The notes beneath the pieces are model-generated. The model was not told the origin of the DNA, ran no database searches, and saw only the letters and a program-made list of their open reading frames with translations. A DNA stretch of 63,131 nucleotides, the filler included, from Rozella allomycis CSF55 (lineage: Eukaryota), in the NCBI GenBank assembly GCA_000442015.1. It is 13 parts of 13 records of this genome, joined end to end, with 100 filler letters (N's around TTAATTAATTAA, not from the genome) between each part and the next. Parts side by side here need not be neighbours in the genome. Positions count along the whole stretch, not along the records: positions 44,514 to 52,163 come from KE560996.1; 12 more parts are not named here. One strand, 5' to 3'. Below are positions 13,254 through 55,200 of the stretch, in pieces. The position numbers and the translations under genes are program-made. Every line of letters begins with the position of its first letter. The stretch's first letter is position 1.

Positions 13254-14689
13254 TTAACTGTTCACTGAAACTTAGACTAAATGAATGACTCGTACTGTAA
13301 CTGTTGACATCAATTTTATCTGGAAGCTCTGTAATGTTAACCTCGAATCTTTCTTGAACTTGATTGAGAATTTGTGAATCTTCAGCACTAGAAACGAAAG
13401 TGACTGCAAGACCTTTGGTACCGAAACGACCAGCTCTACCAACCTTACATATATTCATCTGAATCTGCTTACTCTGTGAAGATAAGAATCAGCGCTATCT
13501 GGCATATCGTAGTTAATAACAATGTTAACTCTTTCAATATCGATTCCTCTGCCGAAAATGTCAGTACAGACCATAATTCTCTTCTTAAAGTCTTTGAATG
13601 TTTGATAACGCGAAATACTTTGGTTTTGTTTTGACTATTTGGTTACCTAAGATTTTGTCAATAAAAATGAAAAACTTACCGTTCTTCTTGTGGCAAACTG
13701 CCGTGAATGCAAATTGAAGGAAAGTTGCATTCAACTAAAAGTTTGTCAAGCTCATTAGCACGTGCGACAGATTTTACAAAGATGACAACTTGATTAAATT
13801 CTAACGCATCAAGCAAATCATTGAGCTTTTTGTTCTTTTCATTTTCTTGCAGTTTGACGTAATGCTGTTGAAGACCATGCAGTGTTAATTTAGCTTCATC
13901 ATCAACAAAAATTTCCAATGGATTTTGCATAAACTTTTTGCAAATAACCCGAATTTCTTTGTTTAGAGTCGCTGAAAACATCATGCATTGCTTTTCATGA
14001 GGTGTTTGACGGAAAATATCTTGAACATCACGTCTCATATCTTTTAATATTACATATTTATAATTACCCAAAGATTCAAGCATTTTATCACATTCGTCCA
14101 AGACAAACATTTTGACCTTCTTAAGGTTGAGGGCTTTATCACGAATAAGCGCCAAAATACGACCAGGGGTACCAACTACAATATGTGGACAGTCTGATTT
14201 TAATTGTTCCATGTTTTGTTTGATGCTAACACCTCCATAAAAAACTGCTGTCTTCACGTCAGGCATGTATTTGGTGAACCTAATGTACTCATTCTTGATT
14301 TGGAATGCAAGCTCACGAGTATGGCACATAATCAAAACAGAAACTTGGTCCTTGACAGGTTCCAATTGTTGAAGTGATGCCAAGACAAACACAGCCGTTT
14401 TCCCCATACCGGATTTAGCTTGACATAGCACGTCCATTCCAAGAACGGCTTGTGGGATACATTCTTGTTGGACTTCAGAAGGATGCTCAAAACCGCAGTC
14501 AACAAGCGCTCTCATAAGTTCTGGCTTTAGCAAAAAGTCACGAAAACCGGAAGAGTGGATACCAACGTACGATCCCTTTTTGACTTCTCTATCCGCAGCA
14601 GATGTGTTATCTCTAAGTTTCGCTACTTTTGTTGGAAGAGGAATAGCTTCATCTTCTTCAAAGTCTACTAAGTCGTCGGCAGCGCTCAT
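13254..14689 (-). CDS. SUB2: DECD-box RNA helicase UAP56/Sub2
   Basis: [22 protein letters not shown]; spliced C-terminus YMNS*. Confidence 0.97.
13618..13679 (-). other. 62-nt intron made of two abutting mini-introns (33+29 nt)
   Basis: GTAAGT...TTAG|GTAACC...AAAG; removal restores [14 protein letters not shown]. Confidence 0.75.
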
Positions 14690-44283: not shown

Positions 44284-44513
44284 CAATNCTTGCTAATACA
44301 GTCGATAGTTTTTTTATTTATATTTTAAATATATACAGTTAATTGAATAATCGTAAGTATTAAGGATGAGGGAAAAATCACCAAGGAGTCGAACCTTGCC
44401 TCAACCTGAAAACNNNNNNNNNNNNNNNNNNNNNNNNNNNNNNNNNNNNNNNNNNNNTTAATTAATTAANNNNNNNNNNNNNNNNNNNNNNNNNNNNNNN
44501 NNNNNNNNNNNNN

Positions 44514-45655
44514 TTATTCATAAAGACGCATAGTTTTATTGTTGGCGCATGTGTTACTCCTACCGACCCAATTCTGGCACATTCGGTTATCAAAGGAAAA
44601 TTCGCCAACAAGTACATTCCGCATCACTTGCGCAATATAATATCAGCGGAAAGGTAGTTGATCTTTGTGTTATAAATAGCGGTGCTAATGATGGTCTCGG
44701 TTTTCCGCTTTTAATGCTTCCAATATATTTCTTGCAGACGGACAATATTGGGGAAGCATTAATGCAATGGTTAACAATTACATGGCTATATGAGATTGGA
44801 TTATCTATTGTTATTGGATTTATATTAGGCTATTCCGCCAAACATATTTTGCAGAAGAGTGAAAAGAATGGCTTGATTGATAAAGGGTCATTTCTAGCCT
44901 TTTCCATCGGACTAGCAGTAATCATTCAACTTTACATACATATAGTTAATGGTCACTGGCCTAGTGTCGTTGTTAGCGAGTGATGATTTATTAGCTGTGT
45001 TTGTCGCCGGAAACACTTTTACTTGGGACGACTGGTTTACCGAAAAAACAAAAAAGGAAAACTTTCAAGAGATCATTGATATGCTTTTTAATATAGTATT
45101 TTTTGTGATACTTGGATCTCTCTTGCCATGGGCATCATTTGCTAGTTTCGGGTTAGGAAAATTGTTTGGATTGTCTTTCCTGATACTAATTTTCCGCAGA
45201 TTACCCATTGTCCTAATATTGAAAAGATTTATTCCAGTTTTGAGATCATACCGCGAGGCATCGTTCNGCCTATTGTTCTTTTATTGAAAAGATTTATTCC
45301 AGTTTTGAGATCATACCGCGAGGCATCGTTCGCTGGCTGGTTTGGACCGATTGGTGTTGGCGCCATATTCTTTTCGCTGTTGATTGAAGAAAAGTTGAAA
45401 ATCCAAACAAATAGCGCAGATGAGATTGACTTTATTATCAATAATACGTTTACGGTAGTATCTTTTGTTGTCCTTGCGTCAATAATTGTGCATGGGATCA
45501 CGGTGCCGATTACCAATTTCCACTTGAAGAAACGAAAGCAAAAGAAATTAAGATCTAGAACGGCAAAGATCAATTTGGCATTATACGAAGAAGATGAAAC
45601 TGATGTGGGTGATGAATTGCCCAAGTTGACAAATGCGAGCAGTGTTTATGAATAA
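44514..45655 (+). CDS. NHA1: Na+/H+ antiporter, CPA1 Nha1/Sod2 type (5' truncated)
   Basis: TPTDPILA, SAESGANDGLGFP, SDDLLAVF, RRLP, GWFGPIGVGA, SIIVHG. Confidence 0.9.
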
Positions 45656-45761
45656 AATAAATCTAATACTCTATTCATTTTTTGATGTTTTATATTTTGG
45701 CGGTATAATTTCTCTAATTGAAATGTGGCGTTAACCAATTCGGGCAAGTTGAAAATTTCCA

Positions 45762-48700
45762 ATGATGCATCTTACACCAGGATTATCAAAATCGCGCAGT
45801 CGTTTGGACTTGTTTTCTTCGCAGGACATTCCGCATGTGCAAAAGAATCAAGTGTCGAGACGCAACGGTAACAAGACTTGACAATTGAAATTAGGTAATA
45901 TTCAGAGTAATTTAAGAATATAGGTAATACTTTGCTGTTAATAAACATAGGTAAGAGTGATATTTTTATCCGGTATAGGTACAATTTCATACTAAATCAT
46001 TATAGGTGCCGTGTTGGGTCGTAATACGATTCTGAAGACTGATCATTTCCACAAGGGAATAAATTTGGATTTGAGTGTACTGTTGCAGGGAGCGCCTAAT
46101 TTCCGGCAGACAGAGTTGAATATCTATGGGGTAGCGCAGCCGACGACTGTAGGGCTCGCATCTATAATGTCGTTGCTTGAATGCCGCCCTGAAGACCATA
46201 TGCATAGTAATCCCAGTGAAAACGGGCATAATTCACTTAATAGCGGGAGAGAACATGTTCATAGTGCGAGTGAAAATGCGAATGTGTCGAATGCAAATAA
46301 AAACTTTGNAGATGTGGGTGATGAATTGCCCAAGTTGACCAATGCGAGTAGTGTTTATGAATAAAGTATATCTAATACTCTTCATTCATCTTGCCTTTGT
46401 TTTGTATTTTGGCGGTATAATTCTCAAATTGAAATGTGGCGTTAACCAATTCGGGCAAGTTGAAAATTTCCAATGATGCATCTTACACCAGGATTATCAA
46501 AATCGCGCAGTCGTTTGGACTTGTTTTCTTCGCAGGACATTCCGCATGTGCAAAAGAATCAAGTGTCGAGACGCAACGGTAACAAGACTTGACAATTGAA
46601 ATTAGGTAATATTCAGAGTAATTTAAGTATATAGGTAATACTTTGCTGTAAATAACATAGGTAAGAGTGATATGTTTATTCCATATAGGTAAAATTTTAA
46701 TACTAAATCATTATAGGTGCCGTGTTGGGTCGTAATACGATTCTGAAGANAATATAGGTAATACTTTGCTGTTAATAAACATAGGTAAGAGTGATATTTT
46801 TATCCGGTATAGGTACAATTTCATACTAAATCATTATAGGTGCCGTGTTGGGTCGTAATACGATTCTGAAGACTGATCATTTCCACAAGGGAATAAATTT
46901 GGATTTGAGTGTACTGTTGCAGGGCGCGCCTAATTTCCGGCAGACAGAGTTGAATATCTATGGGGTAGCGCAGCCGACGACTGTAGGGCTCGCATCTATA
47001 ATGTCGTTGCTTGAATGCCGCCCTGAAGACCATATGCATAGTAGCAATCCCAGTGAAAACGGGCATAATCCGCTTAATACTGGGAGAGAGCATGCTCATA
47101 GTGCGAGTGAAAATGCGAATGTGTCGAATGCAAATAAAAGCTTTGGTGTTTTTTCGCAGTCGTGTAGTGATGTGTTTGAATGCAAGAGATGTACGTGGTT
47201 TAATACGCGGGAGGAGCCTGTTGTGTATATTAATGAGAAGCCGTTTGTGTTGCGCGAGTATGATAGCCCGTTTAGGAATATCAAAACGTATAATGGGATT
47301 AGTGCGAGTAGATTGGAGCAGCTGGAGTTGCGTATGAAGGAGGATGTGTTGAAGGAAGCTGAGAGAAACCATGGATTGGTGTTGGTGCATGATGAGATTA
47401 GTAAGAGAGTATTAGTTTTGAGATAGGTGATGGGAAGATTGTGCCTTATTGGGTGTCTGCTGAGCAGGTGAGAACGAGTCGGGAGGTGTTTGAGTGGTTT
47501 ATCCAGCGGGGGTATAGGGTGAGTTATTTTAGGATACCGATCTCCGCGTCGCAGGCACCGAGTGATGAGTATGTGGATGAGTTTGTGAATCGGCTGATGC
47601 GATTGGAGGTGGAGGAGAGTGTTGTGTTTAATTGTGGGATGGGGGTTGGAAGGACGACGTTTAATATGGCGATAGCGTTGCTTGTGAGGCGTATGAAAAA
47701 GGAGGGATTGAAGCATAAAAAGGAGAGTAATTGGAGTGATTGAATGGGATAGATCAAGATGAGGTGAATACGAGGAATATATTGAGGCTTGTGTATATAT
47801 TGGAGCGAGGGTTGAATAGTAAGATGTCGCCTAATTCAGCGATTGAATGGGCGTTGGCGCGTGGGAATTTGATTGACAAGTTGAAGAATGCGATTATGGG
47901 GAATTATCAAGTAAGAGATGGAGGGGAGAATGAAAGGTTATATTGGAGCTGACGAGTGTGTTGGAGAATGGACAATATTTCAAGAGGATTGTTGATGAGA
48001 CGATTAATCAATGTAAGGGTGTTGAAAGAGATTGAAAGGTGATGCTGTGATTAATTTGAGGGAGGATATATTGATGCATAGAATTAGACANAGGGAGAAT
48101 GAGAGGTTATATTGGAACTGACGAGTGTGTTGGAGAATGGACAACATTTCAAGAGGATTGTTGATGAGACGATTAACCAATGTAAGGGTGTTGAAAGAGA
48201 TTGAAAGGCGATGCTGTGATTAATTTGAGGGAGGATATATTGATGCATAGAATTAGACACAATGTGACTGAAGATTCGAGTGTGTTGGAGTTGGGGATTG
48301 GATCATTAGAGCGATATTTTACGTTGATAGCATTTGCAGCGTATTTGGGGGAAAGAGAGTTTAAGAATGGGTTTAGTCGATGGATTAATGAGAGGGCCGA
48401 GATTTGGAAGATGTTGGAGAATTTGAGAAAGAAGGGAGGGTTGTTGAGGTAGATTGATTTGTAGAGTTTAATAGACATTTCAGACCGATAGAAGAGTTGG
48501 GAATATTGAAGGAAAAGACAGAGCAAAACAAGGCTAGTCAAATATCATTGATTGAAGAAGAAACAATTTCAGCTATTAATGTAAGATTTGAATGATTTGA
48601 TTTATGAAGAATAGAAGTGGATCTGTGTTGACTTCGCATACAATATTGAAGATTGATCATTGGGGAATAGATAAGAGTCAAGTGATGATTGTTGGAGCGC

Positions 48701-51700
48701 CAAATTTTAGAAGAGTTGAAGAATTCCCAGTGTATGGAGTAGCGCAGCCAACTGAGAATGGAATCATCAATGTATTAGAGTACATCAAGCGAGAGTTGGA
48801 GTGTGAAGGGGTTGAAGGGGAGGGGGTAGAGGGTGAAGAAGGGGAGGGGGTTAGTGAAGAGGGGGTAGCAATGGGAATAGAAGGAATGATGATTGATGAG
48901 AGAATTCAAACTACTACTACTACTTTCAAACCTCATACTACATTTAAACCCCCTACTAATAAAATAGTTTGGATTAATTTGAGAGAAGAACCAATAATAT
49001 ATATCAAGGGAGAACCATTTGTGTTGAGAGATGAAAAGTATAGTTTGAGAAACATTCAAACATATTCAGGGATTACAAGTGAACGCTTNATTGGAGAGTG
49101 AAGGGGTTGAAGGTGAAGAAGGGGAGGGGGTTGAAATGGGTGAAGAAGAGAGGCTAGCAATGAGAGTAGAAGGAATGATGGTAGATGAGAGAATTCAAAC
49201 TACTACAACTACTTTTAACCCTCATACTACTATTAAACCCCCTACATTTAAACCCCCTAATACTAATAAAATAGTTTGGATTAATTTGAGAGAAGAACCG
49301 ATTATTTATATAAAGGGAGAACCATTTGTGTTGAGAGATGAGAAATATAGTTTGAGAAACATTCAAACATATTCAGGGATTACAAGTGAACGGTTAGAAT
49401 TGTTAGAGATGAGATTGAAGGATGATGTGATAGCTGAGAGTAAATATTATTCTGGTAGAATATTGTTGCATGAAGAAAATGAAAATGAAATTGTAGGGAA
49501 TTGGATTAAATTAGAGAATGGAAATGTAAAAACTGTGAATGAAACATTTAAATCTGAAATTTATGAATTTTCTAAAAAGAGTTTTATTGAATGTGAATTT
49601 TATAGAATTCCATTGACAGCTGAAGAATCACCAGAGCCAAATGATTTAGATTCTATTCTTCAATTGATTGCCAAAATGGATATCCTCAACACCAGAATCA
49701 TCATGTAAACTTTAGTTTTTGTAAAGGTAGGAATTGTCAAGTTGGGCATGGGAGATCTACAATGGGAATGATTGTAGCCATTCTAGTAATCAACTGGATA
49801 AGAAAAGGTATTGAAGGGGGAGTAGAAGTGGGGAGGGTAGAAGTAGAAGGGAATACTACCACAAGTGATACAAGAGATACTACATCTCCCACTACTTCTC
49901 CTACTACTTCTCCCCTTATATCCCCCCTTATAACATCATCACCTGCTATTGTTTATTCATTGTTGAGAGTTATACGAAATGGATTGGAATGCAAAAAGAT
50001 TGTAGATGAAACAATAAACAAATGTTCAATGACTGTCAATCTAAAAACTAAAATTGAAGAATACAAAATAAAAGCAGAAAAAGCAATGGATGAAAATGAA
50101 GCAAGAAGATTAATCATCAGGGGTGTTCAATATTTAAAAAGATATTTCCTTTTAATTGTATTTCAATCTTATTTGGAACAAACTAATGTTAATGCTTTAA
50201 ATGAAATGGAATCATTCAATTGTTGGATTAAAAGACATTTGGAAATTATTAAAATGATGGATGAAATGGAAGAAGCGTCTTCTATTGGCAACATTCAGAT
50301 TCTATCAATGGTTGACTCTGTTCCCCCTGGCGCTGGCATTGCACTAACAACTGAAGTTTTAGAAGTAGTCAAAAACAGAAAAGGTAAGAGATATGTAGTA
50401 GTAGTTATTAGGTAAAAGATATGAAATAGTAGTTATTAGGTAATAGAGTTGAAATAAGCATATAATAGGTAATCAATTACTTTATATTCTATTTCTCTAG
50501 GTAACCACTTANGAAGTTTTATTGAATGTGAGTTTTATAGAATTCCATTGACAGCTGAAGAGTCACCAGAGCCAAATGATTTGGATTCTATTCTTCAATT
50601 GATTGCCAAAATGGATATTCTCAACACCAGAATCATCATGTAAATAAAAGTTATTGTAAAGGTAGGAATTGTCAAGTTGGGCATGGGAGATCTACCATGG
50701 GAANCCTCAACACCAGAATCATCATGTAAACTTTAGTTTTTGTAAAGGTAGGAATTGTCAAGTTGGGCATGGGAGATCTACAATGGGAATGATTGTAGCC
50801 ATTTTAGTAATCAACTGGATAAGAAAAGGTATCGAGGGGGTTGAAGGGGTTGAAATGGATAGGGTTGAAATGGGGAGGGGTGGAGTAGAAGGGGGTAGAG
50901 AGAGAGTAGAAGTAGAAGTAGAAGGGAATACTACCACAAGTAATACACGTGATGCTACTACAAGAGATACTTCACATGTCAATGCTTCATCTCCCACCAC
51001 ATCCCCCACTTCTACTACTTCTCCCACTACTACTACTTCTCCCCTTGTAACATCATCACCTGCTATTGTTTATTCATTGTTGAGAGTTATACGAAATGGA
51101 TTGGAATGCAAAAAGATTGTAGATGAAACAATAAACAAATGTTCAATGACTGTCAATCTAAAAACTAAAATTGAAGAATACAAAATAAAAGCAGAAAAAG
51201 CAATGGATGAAAATGAAGCAAGAAGATTAATCATCAGGGGTGTTCAATATTTAAAAAGATATTTCCTTTTAATTGTATTTCAATCTTATTTGGAACAAAC
51301 TAATGTTAATGCTTTAAATGAAATGGAATCATTCAATTGTTGGATTAAAAGACATTTGGAAATTATTAAAATGATGGATGAAATGGAAGAAGCGTCTTCT
51401 ATTGGCAACATTCAGATTCTATCAATGGTTGACTCTGTTCCCCCTGGCGCTGGCATTGCACTAACAACTGAAGTTTTAGAAGTAGTCAAAAACAGAAAAG
51501 GTAAGAGATATGTAGTAGTAGTTATTAGGTAAAAGATATGAAATAGTAGTTATTAGGTAACCATGAATAGTTTAAGGCATAATAGGTAATCAATTACTTT
51601 ATATTCTATTTCTCTAGGTAACCACTTCACTTTCTTACTATATCAAAGGTAGTGTGTTGGCTTCGTTTACTATTTTAAAGTATGATCACTTTCCAGGTAA

Positions 51701-52163
51701 TTTACTCTCCTCTAACTCTTATAGGATGTCAGAAACTAACATTGAAAGATAGAATTGATGGAGCACCAAATTTTAGAAGAGTTACGCTTAGTTTAAATAG
51801 TTTACGCTTGGATGATATTTCTCATTCTACTTCAATTGAATCTCTTCATAGATCAAATTCATTCAAATTAGACTCAAAATGTTCTTATGTCTATGGCGTT
51901 GGTATGCCCACTCTAGATGGCATCAAGAAAACTTTATTGTTATGCCATTGTGGTCCAAATAATAATAGATCAATCAAATGGTATCTTTTCTCTTGTTTAA
52001 TTTCAAAGGACTTGCTTAAGAGAAGAACCTGTAATTTTCGTAAATGGAAGACCTTTTGTTTTAAGAACTTTTCAAGATCCAGTCTCCAATCTAGAAACAA
52101 CTGGTAAACATTCAGAAATATATTTAAATAGGAATTGTTTGTGAAAGAGTAGAATTGATGGAA
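45762..52163 (+). CDS. Paladin-like multi-repeat PTP-fold phosphatase; overlapping allelic fragments, 3' truncated
   Basis: Three repeats GxVL..TILKxDH/GAPNFR/YGVAQPT/REEP; CX5R loops FNCGMGVGRTT and NCQVGHGRST. Confidence 0.85.
45868..46005 (+). other. 138-nt intron = five abutting GT-AG mini-introns (27,29,27,28,27 nt)
   Basis: AG|GT junctions at 45894, 45923, 45950, 45978; removal gives RRNG|AVLGRNTILKTDHF. Confidence 0.85.
46579..46716 (+). other. Second (allelic) copy of the five-unit mini-intron array (27,29,26,28,28 nt)
   Basis: Internal substitutions/indels relative to 45868-46005 but all AG|GT junctions intact. Confidence 0.8.
50384..50511 (+). other. Allelic copy of the third-repeat mini-intron array (28,28,29,32 nt, fifth unit truncated at n)
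   Basis: Unit 3 differs strongly in sequence from 51557-51585 but keeps 29 nt and GT...AG. Confidence 0.8.
51501..51648 (+). other. 148-nt intron = five abutting GT-AG mini-introns (28,28,29,32,31 nt)
   Basis: AG|GT junctions at 51528, 51556, 51585, 51617; removal gives KNRKG|SVLASFTILKYDHF. Confidence 0.85.
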
Positions 52164-52263: not shown

Positions 52264-55200
52264 AGTCGACATAAAGCGACGTTGATTGTGTGCCCGCAAG
52301 TTATATTGTCGCAGTGGGCGGATGAGATTGAATCAAAGGTGAAAGGGTTGAAGTTTATTGTGGCGAGTTGTGTGAGTGGATTGAATTTGGGGAGTGTTGA
52401 TGTTGTGTTGACGACGTATGAGGTGTTGAGGAAAGGGATTCATTATACGTATGGGCCGAGAAGGTTGCGTGGAGGGAGAGTTGTGAATAATTTGAAAAAG
52501 AATGTGTTGATTCAAACAGGTAAAGATGATTGAGGTGAATAAAAAGGTAAGAGAGAGTAAATTGATTGAAACAGAATGGTGGAGGGTTGTGTTTGATGAG
52601 TCACAAATGATAGGAAATCCCAATGCAGTGGCATCAGGTATTGAATGTGAGATTGAATTTAGTAGAATTTGCATCACATTTGAAGATGAAGAATAGATGG
52701 TTGGTGACTGGAACTCCACTAGGCAAAAAGTTGAATGAATTGTGTGGATTTATGAAATTTCTAGAATTTGAGCCACTGAATGAACTTTCACATTTTAGAA
52801 ATTTACTAAACTATTTAGAAAACTCTAAAAATTTAATTTTGTGGAAGAAATTTGAAGAAACGATAAATTTGATATCATCTAGATTGACAAAGAAGATTGT
52901 GAGTGAAGAAGTGGAGTTGCCTGGCCAGAATATGATTGTAGAGAGATTGACGTTTTCCAAAGTGGAGGATTATTACTATAGGGGGATAGTGGAGAGATGT
53001 TTAGAAGAGAATAAAGGCGAAATGGTGAATTGGATGCAGCAATTGAGGCAGGCGTGGTAAATAGAATTTATTTTGAATTAAAAGTGTTCATCCAACGTTG
53101 GGGGAGAGAAACAGTCGAGAGTTTTCAAAGAAGAAGGAAACTTTGAGTTTGAAGAAATGTTTAGAAATTATGATTAAAAATAATGTGAGTGAAAAGGAGA
53201 ATAATGAGAGAAATTTGTGTCAAGAAAAGTTGAAGATTGGGATGGGATTTGAAGTGAAGAATGATATTGAAAATTCATTAAAATTTTATAGAGAAGCGAA
53301 AGAAATTTGTGAAAAGAAGATTCAAGAATTTGATGAGGGGTTAGGAGAAGGGGTTGAGGGGGGGGGTAGAGGGGGTAGAGGTTGAGGGGGTAGAGGGAGA
53401 AGTGAAAGAAGATGAAGTCAATGAAGTCAATGAAGTTAAACTAGATCAAACACTCGATGAAGTAAATGAAGAAGATGCTGGGTGGTTGAAGATGAAGAAT
53501 TGGTTGAATTTACTTTTCCAATGTTACTTTAATATCGCTAGTTTGAAGATTGATGAGAATGAATCGAATGAAATGTTTGATGAAGCAGAAAAGATTAGAA
53601 CCAGGGTATTAAAAATAGCTGAAGATTCAATTGAAAATAAAAAGAGAAATTTAATTAATTTTTATTCAAATGAAAAGATTAAAGAAATTGAATTTAAAAG
53701 TCCAAATTTTGATGAGTTTATTACAAGAGATTATTATAGAACCCTTGAAGTATCTAGAAAAGTTTTAAATGAAATAAAAAAATGCAAAAAAGAAATTTTA
53801 GAAATATTTGAGAAACCCTTGTTTGAAAATTATGAAGAATCTGCAACGTTTCAAGAGAGGGGAAATTTAATTCAAAATTATTATTCAATTCTAATTTCTA
53901 AATTTCAAGAATTATTAAACAGCGAAAATGATGTGATTGACTTTACTTTTATTGAGGGAGTTGAAGAGAGGGAAGGGGGAGAGGGAGAAAGAGGAGAGGT
54001 TGAAAGGGGAGATAGAGAGGGAGATAGAGAGGGAGAAAGTGGAATTAACGTTGAAAGAGAGGTTAGTGTTGGAGTTGACAGAGAAGTAGAAGACCACGTA
54101 GTAATCACTGCTGATGGTCAATTGAAGAGAAAAGATGAACAAGTTCATGAACAAAGAAAAAAGTTTAAACCTAACACGGATTCAAACTCTAGTGGTTCAA
54201 ACACCTTTACAAATAACTTAAAGTGCTTGCCGTTTCATAGATTAATTTTTAATTTTCAACAATTTGTTTTAAAGAAAACTTCAAAAGAAGAAGACGAAGA
54301 AATTTCAGAAATTGATAAAATGAATTCTGAAATTTCTCAAATTGAAATTCATCAAATTAATTCTGAAATTTCTAAAATAAGAAAAGAGTTTGTTAATTAC
54401 ATTAGAGAATACAATTTAATCAACAAAATATTCAATTCTAGAATCATCTATTTCAAACAACTTCAATCTCTATCAGACAAGGTCACTCTGCCTCAAGTTG
54501 ATGACATTGATGACTTTGTCAATCAACTCTTGTTAAACACTCAAAACACTTTTGCTTTAATCAATCAACAAGAAGCCAAAATTAGATATCTTTCAAATCT
54601 TCAACAATTAAATCACAATGATGAAATTTGTGTCATTTGCAGATCTAAATATGAAAATGGTTTATTAACTGAATGTGGAGTAAATTTTATTCTTATTTCT
54701 CATGTAGCATATTGGTTGTACCAAGTGTATGACGGCTTGGATCAAATCTAAAAATAAATGTCCCGTCTGCAACGCTTCAATCAACCAGAAATTCACTCTA
54801 GTCTCAAACAATGAAATCTCTACCAAAAAACCAAAATATCTTCCGCCTCCACAATTCAGCACCAAAATTGATTTTGTTGTTCGTTCCATCCTTCATTTAA
54901 ACAAAACTGATCCCGATGCGAAATATCTCGTATTTTCTGAATGGGATCAAGCTCTCCATCTACTACAGAAAGCTCTATCTTCCCACAACATTAAATCAAT
55001 CAGACTCGAAAGAAAAAACAACGCCGTCCACCAATTCAACGTTGACGATTCAATCAAAGTTTTCATCCTGCACGCCAGAATGCAGAGCGCTGGGTTAACT
55101 CTCACAAGAGCTACTCACGTCTTTCTATTAGAACCATGCTTAAATCCAGCTCTCGAAAAGCAAGCTATTGGTCGAGTTCACAGGTTTGGGCAGAAAAGAG

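Follow-up and report, generated by a model that had tools for sequence, protein, structure and literature searches.

How an intervening sequence of 138 nucleotides (nt) is removed in a stretch of genome whose ordinary introns measure 26 to 31 nt is the question raised by a paladin-like gene of Rozella allomycis CSF55. The gene lies at positions 45762 to 52163, in the part of the analyzed DNA that comes from KE560996.1, and all positions refer to the whole 63,131-nt stretch of DNA that was analyzed (assembly GCA_000442015.1), which we call the window. The intervening sequence, array 1 (45868 to 46005), consists of five abutting units of 27, 29, 27, 28, and 27 nt, each of which starts with GTA and ends with TAG, and its coordinates, lengths, and ends proved to be exactly those claimed in an earlier note on this DNA. 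The best-supported mechanism is that these units are autonomous mini-introns, probably removed serially through zero-length exons.

Anatomy of array 1

On the plus strand, the array is preceded by a putative exon 1 (45762 to 45867), with a presumed start codon at the ATG at 45762 and a phase 1 end. It is followed by the start of exon 2 (46006 to 46308), a piece that stops at a single-N assembly join, the exon resuming in a redundant piece at 46840 to 47400. Between them lie unit 1 (45868 to 45894; 27 nt), unit 2 (45895 to 45923; 29 nt), unit 3 (45924 to 45950; 27 nt), unit 4 (45951 to 45978; 28 nt), and unit 5 (45979 to 46005; 27 nt). With these lengths of 27 to 29 nt and A+T fractions of 0.68 to 0.79, all five have the attributes of the mini-intron class of the window (26 to 31 nt, GTA at the start, TAG or AAG at the end, and A+T-rich). 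Array 1 has four internal TAG-GTA junctions, as has a second array in the same gene (array 2, described below), and whichever unit is excised, the next GTA comes to adjoin either the exon end or a TAG, so that, as far as the sequence tells, a functional donor would be regenerated each time.

Chains of this kind are not expected at random. A scan of both strands of the window for GTA..TAG unit chains found them confined to one contig and to its plus strand, where they correspond to array 1 and its copies and to two copies of array 2; the minus strand yielded no such chain in that scan. Chains of three or more GTA(24 to 34 nt)TAG units were absent from all 200 dinucleotide-preserving shuffles of the window, in which the longest chain had two units, and not one of 200,000 random intron-like sequences of 138 nt, or of 148 nt, proved fully divisible into GTA..AG units of 24 to 36 nt. 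Chance is no explanation for the chain in array 1.

Single N letters in the window (e.g., at 46309 and 46750) join overlapping pieces of one locus that differ by a few percent and are apparently uncollapsed alleles. Because the pieces joined in this way are partly redundant, extra copies of the array occur: a second, allelic assembly copy on the plus strand at 46579 to 46716, with units of 27, 29, 26, 28, and 28 nt that again total 138 nt, so that unit 3 is 1 nt shorter and unit 5 is 1 nt longer than in the first copy, and a partial third copy at 46758 to 46839 (plus strand) that contains only units 3 to 5 and is identical to copy 1. Apart from such redundant assembly pieces, no other, dispersed copies of the arrays were found within the window. 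Array 1 is also covered by contigs of three sequencing runs from three studies (X2, X4, and X8), with no deletion joints. X11, a metatranscriptome run with a word share of 0.00 and the one RNA run listed, contributed no contigs that align to the window, which has no bearing on expression. Run X4 holds the allelic form within one 4960-nt contig, and in run X2 the window form and the allelic form occur at comparable depths, accompanied by a third variant in which unit 2 is 28 nt long. These three variants coexist in X2 over exon 1 and array 1 (45773 to 46018), where contig depths are about 104 versus 341, with 222 versus 233 in the next segment; the depths and the three variants suggest that haplotypes or copies number more than two.

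The host gene and the requirement for complete removal

The host gene belongs to the paladin/PTP-like phytase family, in that exon 2 encodes a PTP-like phytase domain (PF14566; Pfam E value, 2.1e-21) and three paladin repeats extend along 45.8 to 52.2 kb (tblastn of P0001) in an architecture like that of fungal paladins. Exon 2 shares 41 to 48% identity with the majority of the paladin-like proteins listed from chytrids and Mucorales, and in the remainder of the gene the exons stay open and the introns standard throughout the three repeats.

At array 1, a Gly codon is split such that its first base comes from exon 1 and its GT comes from exon 2, after which the conserved TILK-DHF motif follows. 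Once the array is spliced out, the junction lies within a single ungapped block in 8 of 8 paladin homologues, and the spliced junction of array 2 is ungapped in 8 of 8 as well. Because the homologues align gaplessly across both junctions, each of the two arrays must be wholly removed. The consequences of retention point the same way: of 31 patterns of partial retention in array 1, 30 introduce a stop codon, the sole exception being retention of unit 3 alone, which stays open with the 27-nt form and would shift the frame with the allelic 26-nt form. Retention of the whole array in frame leads into a stop, and for array 2 a stop is met in 31 of 31 retention patterns. The assertion of the earlier note that all 138 nt must go is thus upheld by both the homologue alignments and the retention patterns.

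Among similar-length and longer proteins in a collection of 5.8 billion sequences, none was more than 50% identical to exon 2, though the Rozella GDC-P protein is present there; the public annotation may lack or break the paladin-like gene over 45762 to 52163. A protein-guided scan of metagenome contigs found no relatives. As a separate feature, the paladin repeats contain G-rich inserts of low complexity, rich in Glu, Gly, and Val, at 48800 to 48870, 49100 to 49170, and 50830 to 50930, and the length of these inserts varies between redundant pieces.

Recurrence of the composite architecture

The architecture of array 1 recurs in array 2 (51501 to 51648, plus strand), where five units of 28, 28, 29, 32, and 31 nt, the last ending in AAG, make up 148 nt. 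Its position is the equivalent G-GT Gly codon of the third paladin repeat. A partial redundant copy of array 2 at 50384 to 50511 (plus strand) contains four units plus the beginning of a fifth, with a different unit 3.

Shorter composites interrupt two other genes, each located in a different contig. In a DEAD-box helicase gene on the minus strand, units of 33 and 29 nt abut at an internal TAG-GTA junction (13618 to 13679), and the reading frame is continuous and open only when all 62 nt are removed, with the Pfam Helicase_C profile matched over its positions 2 to 54 upstream and 58 to 105 downstream. In an SNF2-like gene, units of 27 and 28 nt abut at 52520 to 52574 (plus strand); the open reading frames (ORFs) join only when both units (55 nt) are removed, and segments of the SNF2-rel_dom profile follow in the order 52 to 116, 126 to 144 (E value, 0.12), and 135 to 260. 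This second composite has moderate support and is less firmly established than that of the DEAD-box gene. At these lengths, random intron-like sequences can be decomposed into units only rarely (709 of 200,000 62-mers and 542 of 200,000 55-mers).

The composite architecture is thus present in three genes, and each of the four intervening sequences above 36 nt that were verified in the window (138, 148, 62, and 55 nt) can be divided into units of 27 to 33 nt. The units of 32 and 33 nt in array 2 and the DEAD-box gene are slightly above the range of the single introns.

Single introns of the window

As the earlier note had stated, the units resemble ordinary introns. A set of 31 hand-picked single introns measures 26 to 31 nt, with a median of 27 nt, a GTA start, mostly a TAG or AAG end, and an A+T fraction of 0.75 ± 0.06. 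The mapping of the annotated R. allomycis protein P0121 backs three introns of the set, measuring 26, 26, and 27 nt, and the introns supported by P0121 and by the paladin homologues have the same length range as the hand-picked set. These lengths agree with the introns of about 30 nt that are remarked on for Rozella allomycis S23 in the relevant passage of PMC6349667.

Variation within the arrays and divergence among units

Comparison of the forms of array 1 revealed 13 allelic variant sites in 138 nt, including three single-base indels, none of which falls in the 30 letters of the GTA starts and TAG ends. By simple arithmetic, such avoidance of the splice letters has a probability of (108/138)^13 = about 0.04. 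Despite the indels, all units remain 26 to 29 nt long. In the 106 nt of exon 1 there are four variant sites, and the unit interiors evolve faster than the exons.

The copies of array 2 display a different pattern. They are identical over the 200 nt of upstream exon compared and over the shared parts of units 1, 2, 4, and 5, with the exception of the last compared base at the assembly join. In unit 3 (51557 to 51585 versus 50440 to 50468), the interior is largely replaced, with 14 differing alignment columns, and its indels of -5, +4, and +1 compensate for each other such that the length stays at 29 nt.

Across units, the mean interior identity is 0.53, the same as the background of 0.53 among unrelated single introns, which suggests that most units are old or unrelated to each other. 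Units 1 and 2 of array 2 depart from this with an identity of 0.86, the highest background value in 465 pairs being 0.75, and this likeness indicates that whole-unit duplication happens; the pair has the appearance of a recent unit duplication. Because the interiors lie at background similarity and yet the ends and the size have been kept, each unit appears to be under selection as an intron, and we regard this as the strongest argument for such selection. A minisatellite or other tandem repeat was rejected as a description of the arrays, since the units are mutually dissimilar apart from that single pair.

The arrays were also considered as hosts or scaffolds of structured RNA. No Rfam family matched at E values of up to 1 over 44514 to 52163, and no stable fold was found: array 1 has a z score of +1.78, folding worse than 197 of 200 shuffles, and array 2 has a z score of +0.26. 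In the lack of both a fold and an Rfam family, an intron-hosted small RNA (e.g., a snoRNA) was rejected, and a hosted RNA or a structure bridging the ends is unlikely.

Proposed mechanism and alternatives

We propose a mechanism in which five autonomous mini-introns meet at AG-GT boundaries, with intervening exons of zero length. The spliceosome would take each unit for an ordinary intron and excise the units singly; each excision would re-form a normal AG-GT or exon-GT junction, and the order of removal need not be fixed, with two adjoining units probably not being processed simultaneously. The conserved reading frame would be back only once all five units had been excised. Arrays would probably grow via duplication of whole units, the new copy being spliceable at birth, and selection on the ends and length of each unit would then maintain the array, with no dedicated regulatory function being assumed. 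The earlier note had proposed stepwise removal by a machinery limited to about 26 to 33 nt; its account of the anatomy and of the need for full removal is confirmed, and the stepwise removal is the best-supported mechanism, as judged from the DNA. A more far-reaching form of this proposal is that the spliceosome of the Rozella lineage has a hard length limit near 33 nt and that every longer intervening sequence is made up of concatenated autonomous mini-introns, excised in series via exons of zero length, which we advance tentatively, as a possible but somewhat doubtful generalization.

Several observations weigh against serial excision, and some of them are also what would be expected if the 138 nt formed one intron excised all at once, with the first GT and the last AG as its ends and the internal AG-GT sites as unused relics of growth by unit duplication or mini-intron insertion, an alternative that we consider unlikely while giving it serious weight. 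Duplication, as in the 86% alike pair of array 2, does create internal AG-GT sites, and right-sized GTA..AG stretches abound where they are evidently unspliced: 12.4 kb of long exons contain 61 such decoys of 26 to 32 nt, and the conserved exon directly after array 2 (51649 to 51680) itself reads GTA..AAG over 32 nt, a look-alike of a sixth unit. Given these decoys, ends and length do not suffice for splicing and internal sites need not be used, and some further signal must tell real mini-introns from look-alikes. A dinucleotide model separates introns from decoys only weakly, with unit 4 of array 1, units 1 and 3 of array 2, and both SNF2 units falling in the lower tail of the single-intron scores. 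The survey covers 63 kb of the genome, and the single introns were picked by hand from 220 ORF-joining candidates with a search range of 18 to 45 nt, so that the upper bound of the 26- to 31-nt range is no unbiased estimate. Verified noncomposite introns longer than 33 nt were not found in the window, but the scans for long introns were noisy, with 1277 candidates in the ab initio scan and 64 single, 2 chain, and 290 unresolved pairs in the ORF-pair scan, most of these pairs being spurious. The allelic test is modest (P about 0.04), the differences in unit 3 of array 2 may stem from a single event, and both the unit-by-unit excision, deduced from DNA alone, and the duplication origin are inferred. 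Against removal in a single step, however, there is no verified intron in the window of more than 33 nt that is not composite, most units keep their ends and a size of 26 to 33 nt while being no more alike than unrelated introns, the allelic variants spare every internal GTA and TAG (0 of 13) with indels that leave the unit sizes in range, and no fold joins the ends of the array.

If the units are removed one by one, as we prefer to think, this might have been selected as regulation, in the form of a delay timer or a sensor of splicing efficiency that tunes paladin expression via premature stops. The near universality of stops among the retention patterns of both arrays and the presence of two five-unit arrays at equivalent positions of one gene would fit such a device. 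Composites are also found, however, in two unrelated genes of housekeeping type, which points to a general genomic process rather than a gene-specific device, and the unit interiors evolve faster than the exons, so that we regard regulation as improbable. The timer or regulatory ratchet envisaged in the earlier note finds no support, neutral whole-unit duplication, of the kind indicated by the pair in array 2, fitting at least as well. It is more improbable still, to a degree that we give it hardly any credence, that array 1 is not a functioning intron at all and instead represents an assembly artifact, a minisatellite in a dead gene, or coding sequence. The window is indeed a rough pseudomolecule of redundant pieces joined by N, and the protein collection contains no Rozella protein for exon 2; but the array is present in contigs of three runs from three studies, the gene otherwise keeps its open exons and standard introns across the three paladin repeats, the array when retained whole in frame meets a stop, and its units are not repeats of one another.

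Relationship to known intron architectures

The arrays are closest in form to recursive splicing by way of exons of zero length (ratchet points), which PMC5126111 and PMC8605326 describe for long introns of Drosophila and vertebrates. The view in the earlier note, which placed recursive splicing mainly in the very long introns of animals, needs amending, since two zero-length-exon instances are reported in Schizosaccharomyces pombe (10.1101/226894). As in recursive splicing so described, a 3' splice site directly abuts a 5' splice site (AG-GT), the donor would be regenerated, and removal would be piecewise. In those accounts, however, one or a few ratchet points lie in introns of hundreds to many thousands of nucleotides, whereas here 138 nt are made up of nothing but five complete introns of standard size (27 to 29 nt), the internal sites of which are predicted from DNA to be used and could be used in any order.

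Stwintrons and complex intervening sequences of fungi, as characterized in the relevant sections of PMC7138796 (see also PMC9024468 and PMC8469720), contain several U2-type introns that are removed by consecutive standard reactions, and small duplications have been proposed for their origin (PMC7138796). They share with the arrays the property of being a fungal intervening sequence of more than one intron, for which consecutive excision is predicted here too. As portrayed in those sections, an external intron has its donor, branch, or acceptor element broken up by an internal one, so that the introns are nested; the units of the arrays instead stand side by side with intact ends, and there are up to five of them rather than two. 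A nested stwintron was rejected as a description of array 1, since its units adjoin one another, none of them lacking an intact GTA start and AG end of its own.

Ultrashort introns are on record for Paramecium and Nyctotherus, at about 25 bp (PMC5014332), and for myxozoans (PMC13644364), and the Rozella introns resemble them, to the extent these sources detail them, in their narrow length class of about 25 to 30 nt and their simple GTA..AG ends. The passages on intron length in PMC5014332, PMC13644364, and PMC6349667 carry no mention of longer introns that are concatenated or quantized.

Under the tandem genomic duplication model of intron gain, copying of a segment bounded by AG-GT adds an intron that can be spliced. 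The pair of units 1 and 2 in array 2 resembles the product of such an event, with the differences that an existing intron, and not exon sequence, would have been duplicated and that its repetition would build arrays. The model appears by name in PMC6349667 and PMC13685798.

Searches of full texts and of papers on ultrashort introns yielded no account of arrays of tandem mini-introns, a coverage that does not extend to the Rozella genome paper and the supplements of genome papers; within that coverage, the remark in the earlier note that the architecture was not known to be described stands. The arrays probably represent a new form of recursive splicing and, if the pattern is general, an intron architecture in its own right. 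They bear on how the spliceosomes of organisms with ultrashort introns gauge intron length and on whether that length has a true upper limit, for which concatenated mini-introns would offer a natural experiment, predicting quantized lengths, tiny lariats, and ordered or unordered intermediates. If the length limit proposed above is true, intron lengths across the genome would be quantized at about 27, 55, 83, 110, and 138 nt, and arrays would expand through duplication of whole units and contract through their loss, which would amount to a separate mode of intron evolution. With regard to intron gain, duplication of a whole intron at AG-GT would make introns that work from birth. In practical terms, gene prediction tuned to introns of 26 nt may overlook array-bearing genes or break them up.

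Make-up of the window

The window is a pseudomolecule in which twelve linkers of the form N44-TTAATTAATTAA-N44 (e.g., 1535 to 1634 and 44414 to 44513) separate unrelated contigs. Its long ORFs are open under the standard code and encode proteins that are ordinary for a eukaryote, namely GDC-P, a DEAD-box helicase, GNT-I, DNA polymerase B, and a cofilin/SH3 protein. The exon of GDC-P shares 95% identity with P0121, an annotated protein of Rozella allomycis CSF55, followed by chytrid matches at about 60 to 65%. This identity marks the organism as R. allomycis or a very close relative and, together with the open ORFs under the standard code, led us to reject a ciliate origin.

Array-like sequences in metagenomes

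A pattern scan of metagenome DNA returned at least 116 loci, nearly all of which are tandem repeats; among the matches listed, only one, L060, is similar to an intron array. It is a 2604-nt contig with C4A4/G4T4 telomeres, i.e., a ciliate nanochromosome, and carries a coiled-coil gene. On the reverse strand at 1094 to 1220, this contig has four abutting GTAAG..AG units of 33, 33, 28, and 33 nt, all of them containing a word similar to ACTAA, and under the ciliate code these units occupy the only frame change of the gene. Three of the units are multiples of three without TGA, so that their removal cannot be judged from the sequence. L060 may represent a parallel case of a mini-intron array, and other eukaryotes with tiny introns may share the concatemer mode.

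Four further metagenome contigs (L058, L081, L099, and L116) share a family of degenerate repeats of about 31 nt that start with GTAATA and end with GTAG. These repeats lie in very A+T-rich surroundings and adjoin a conserved A+T-rich leader.

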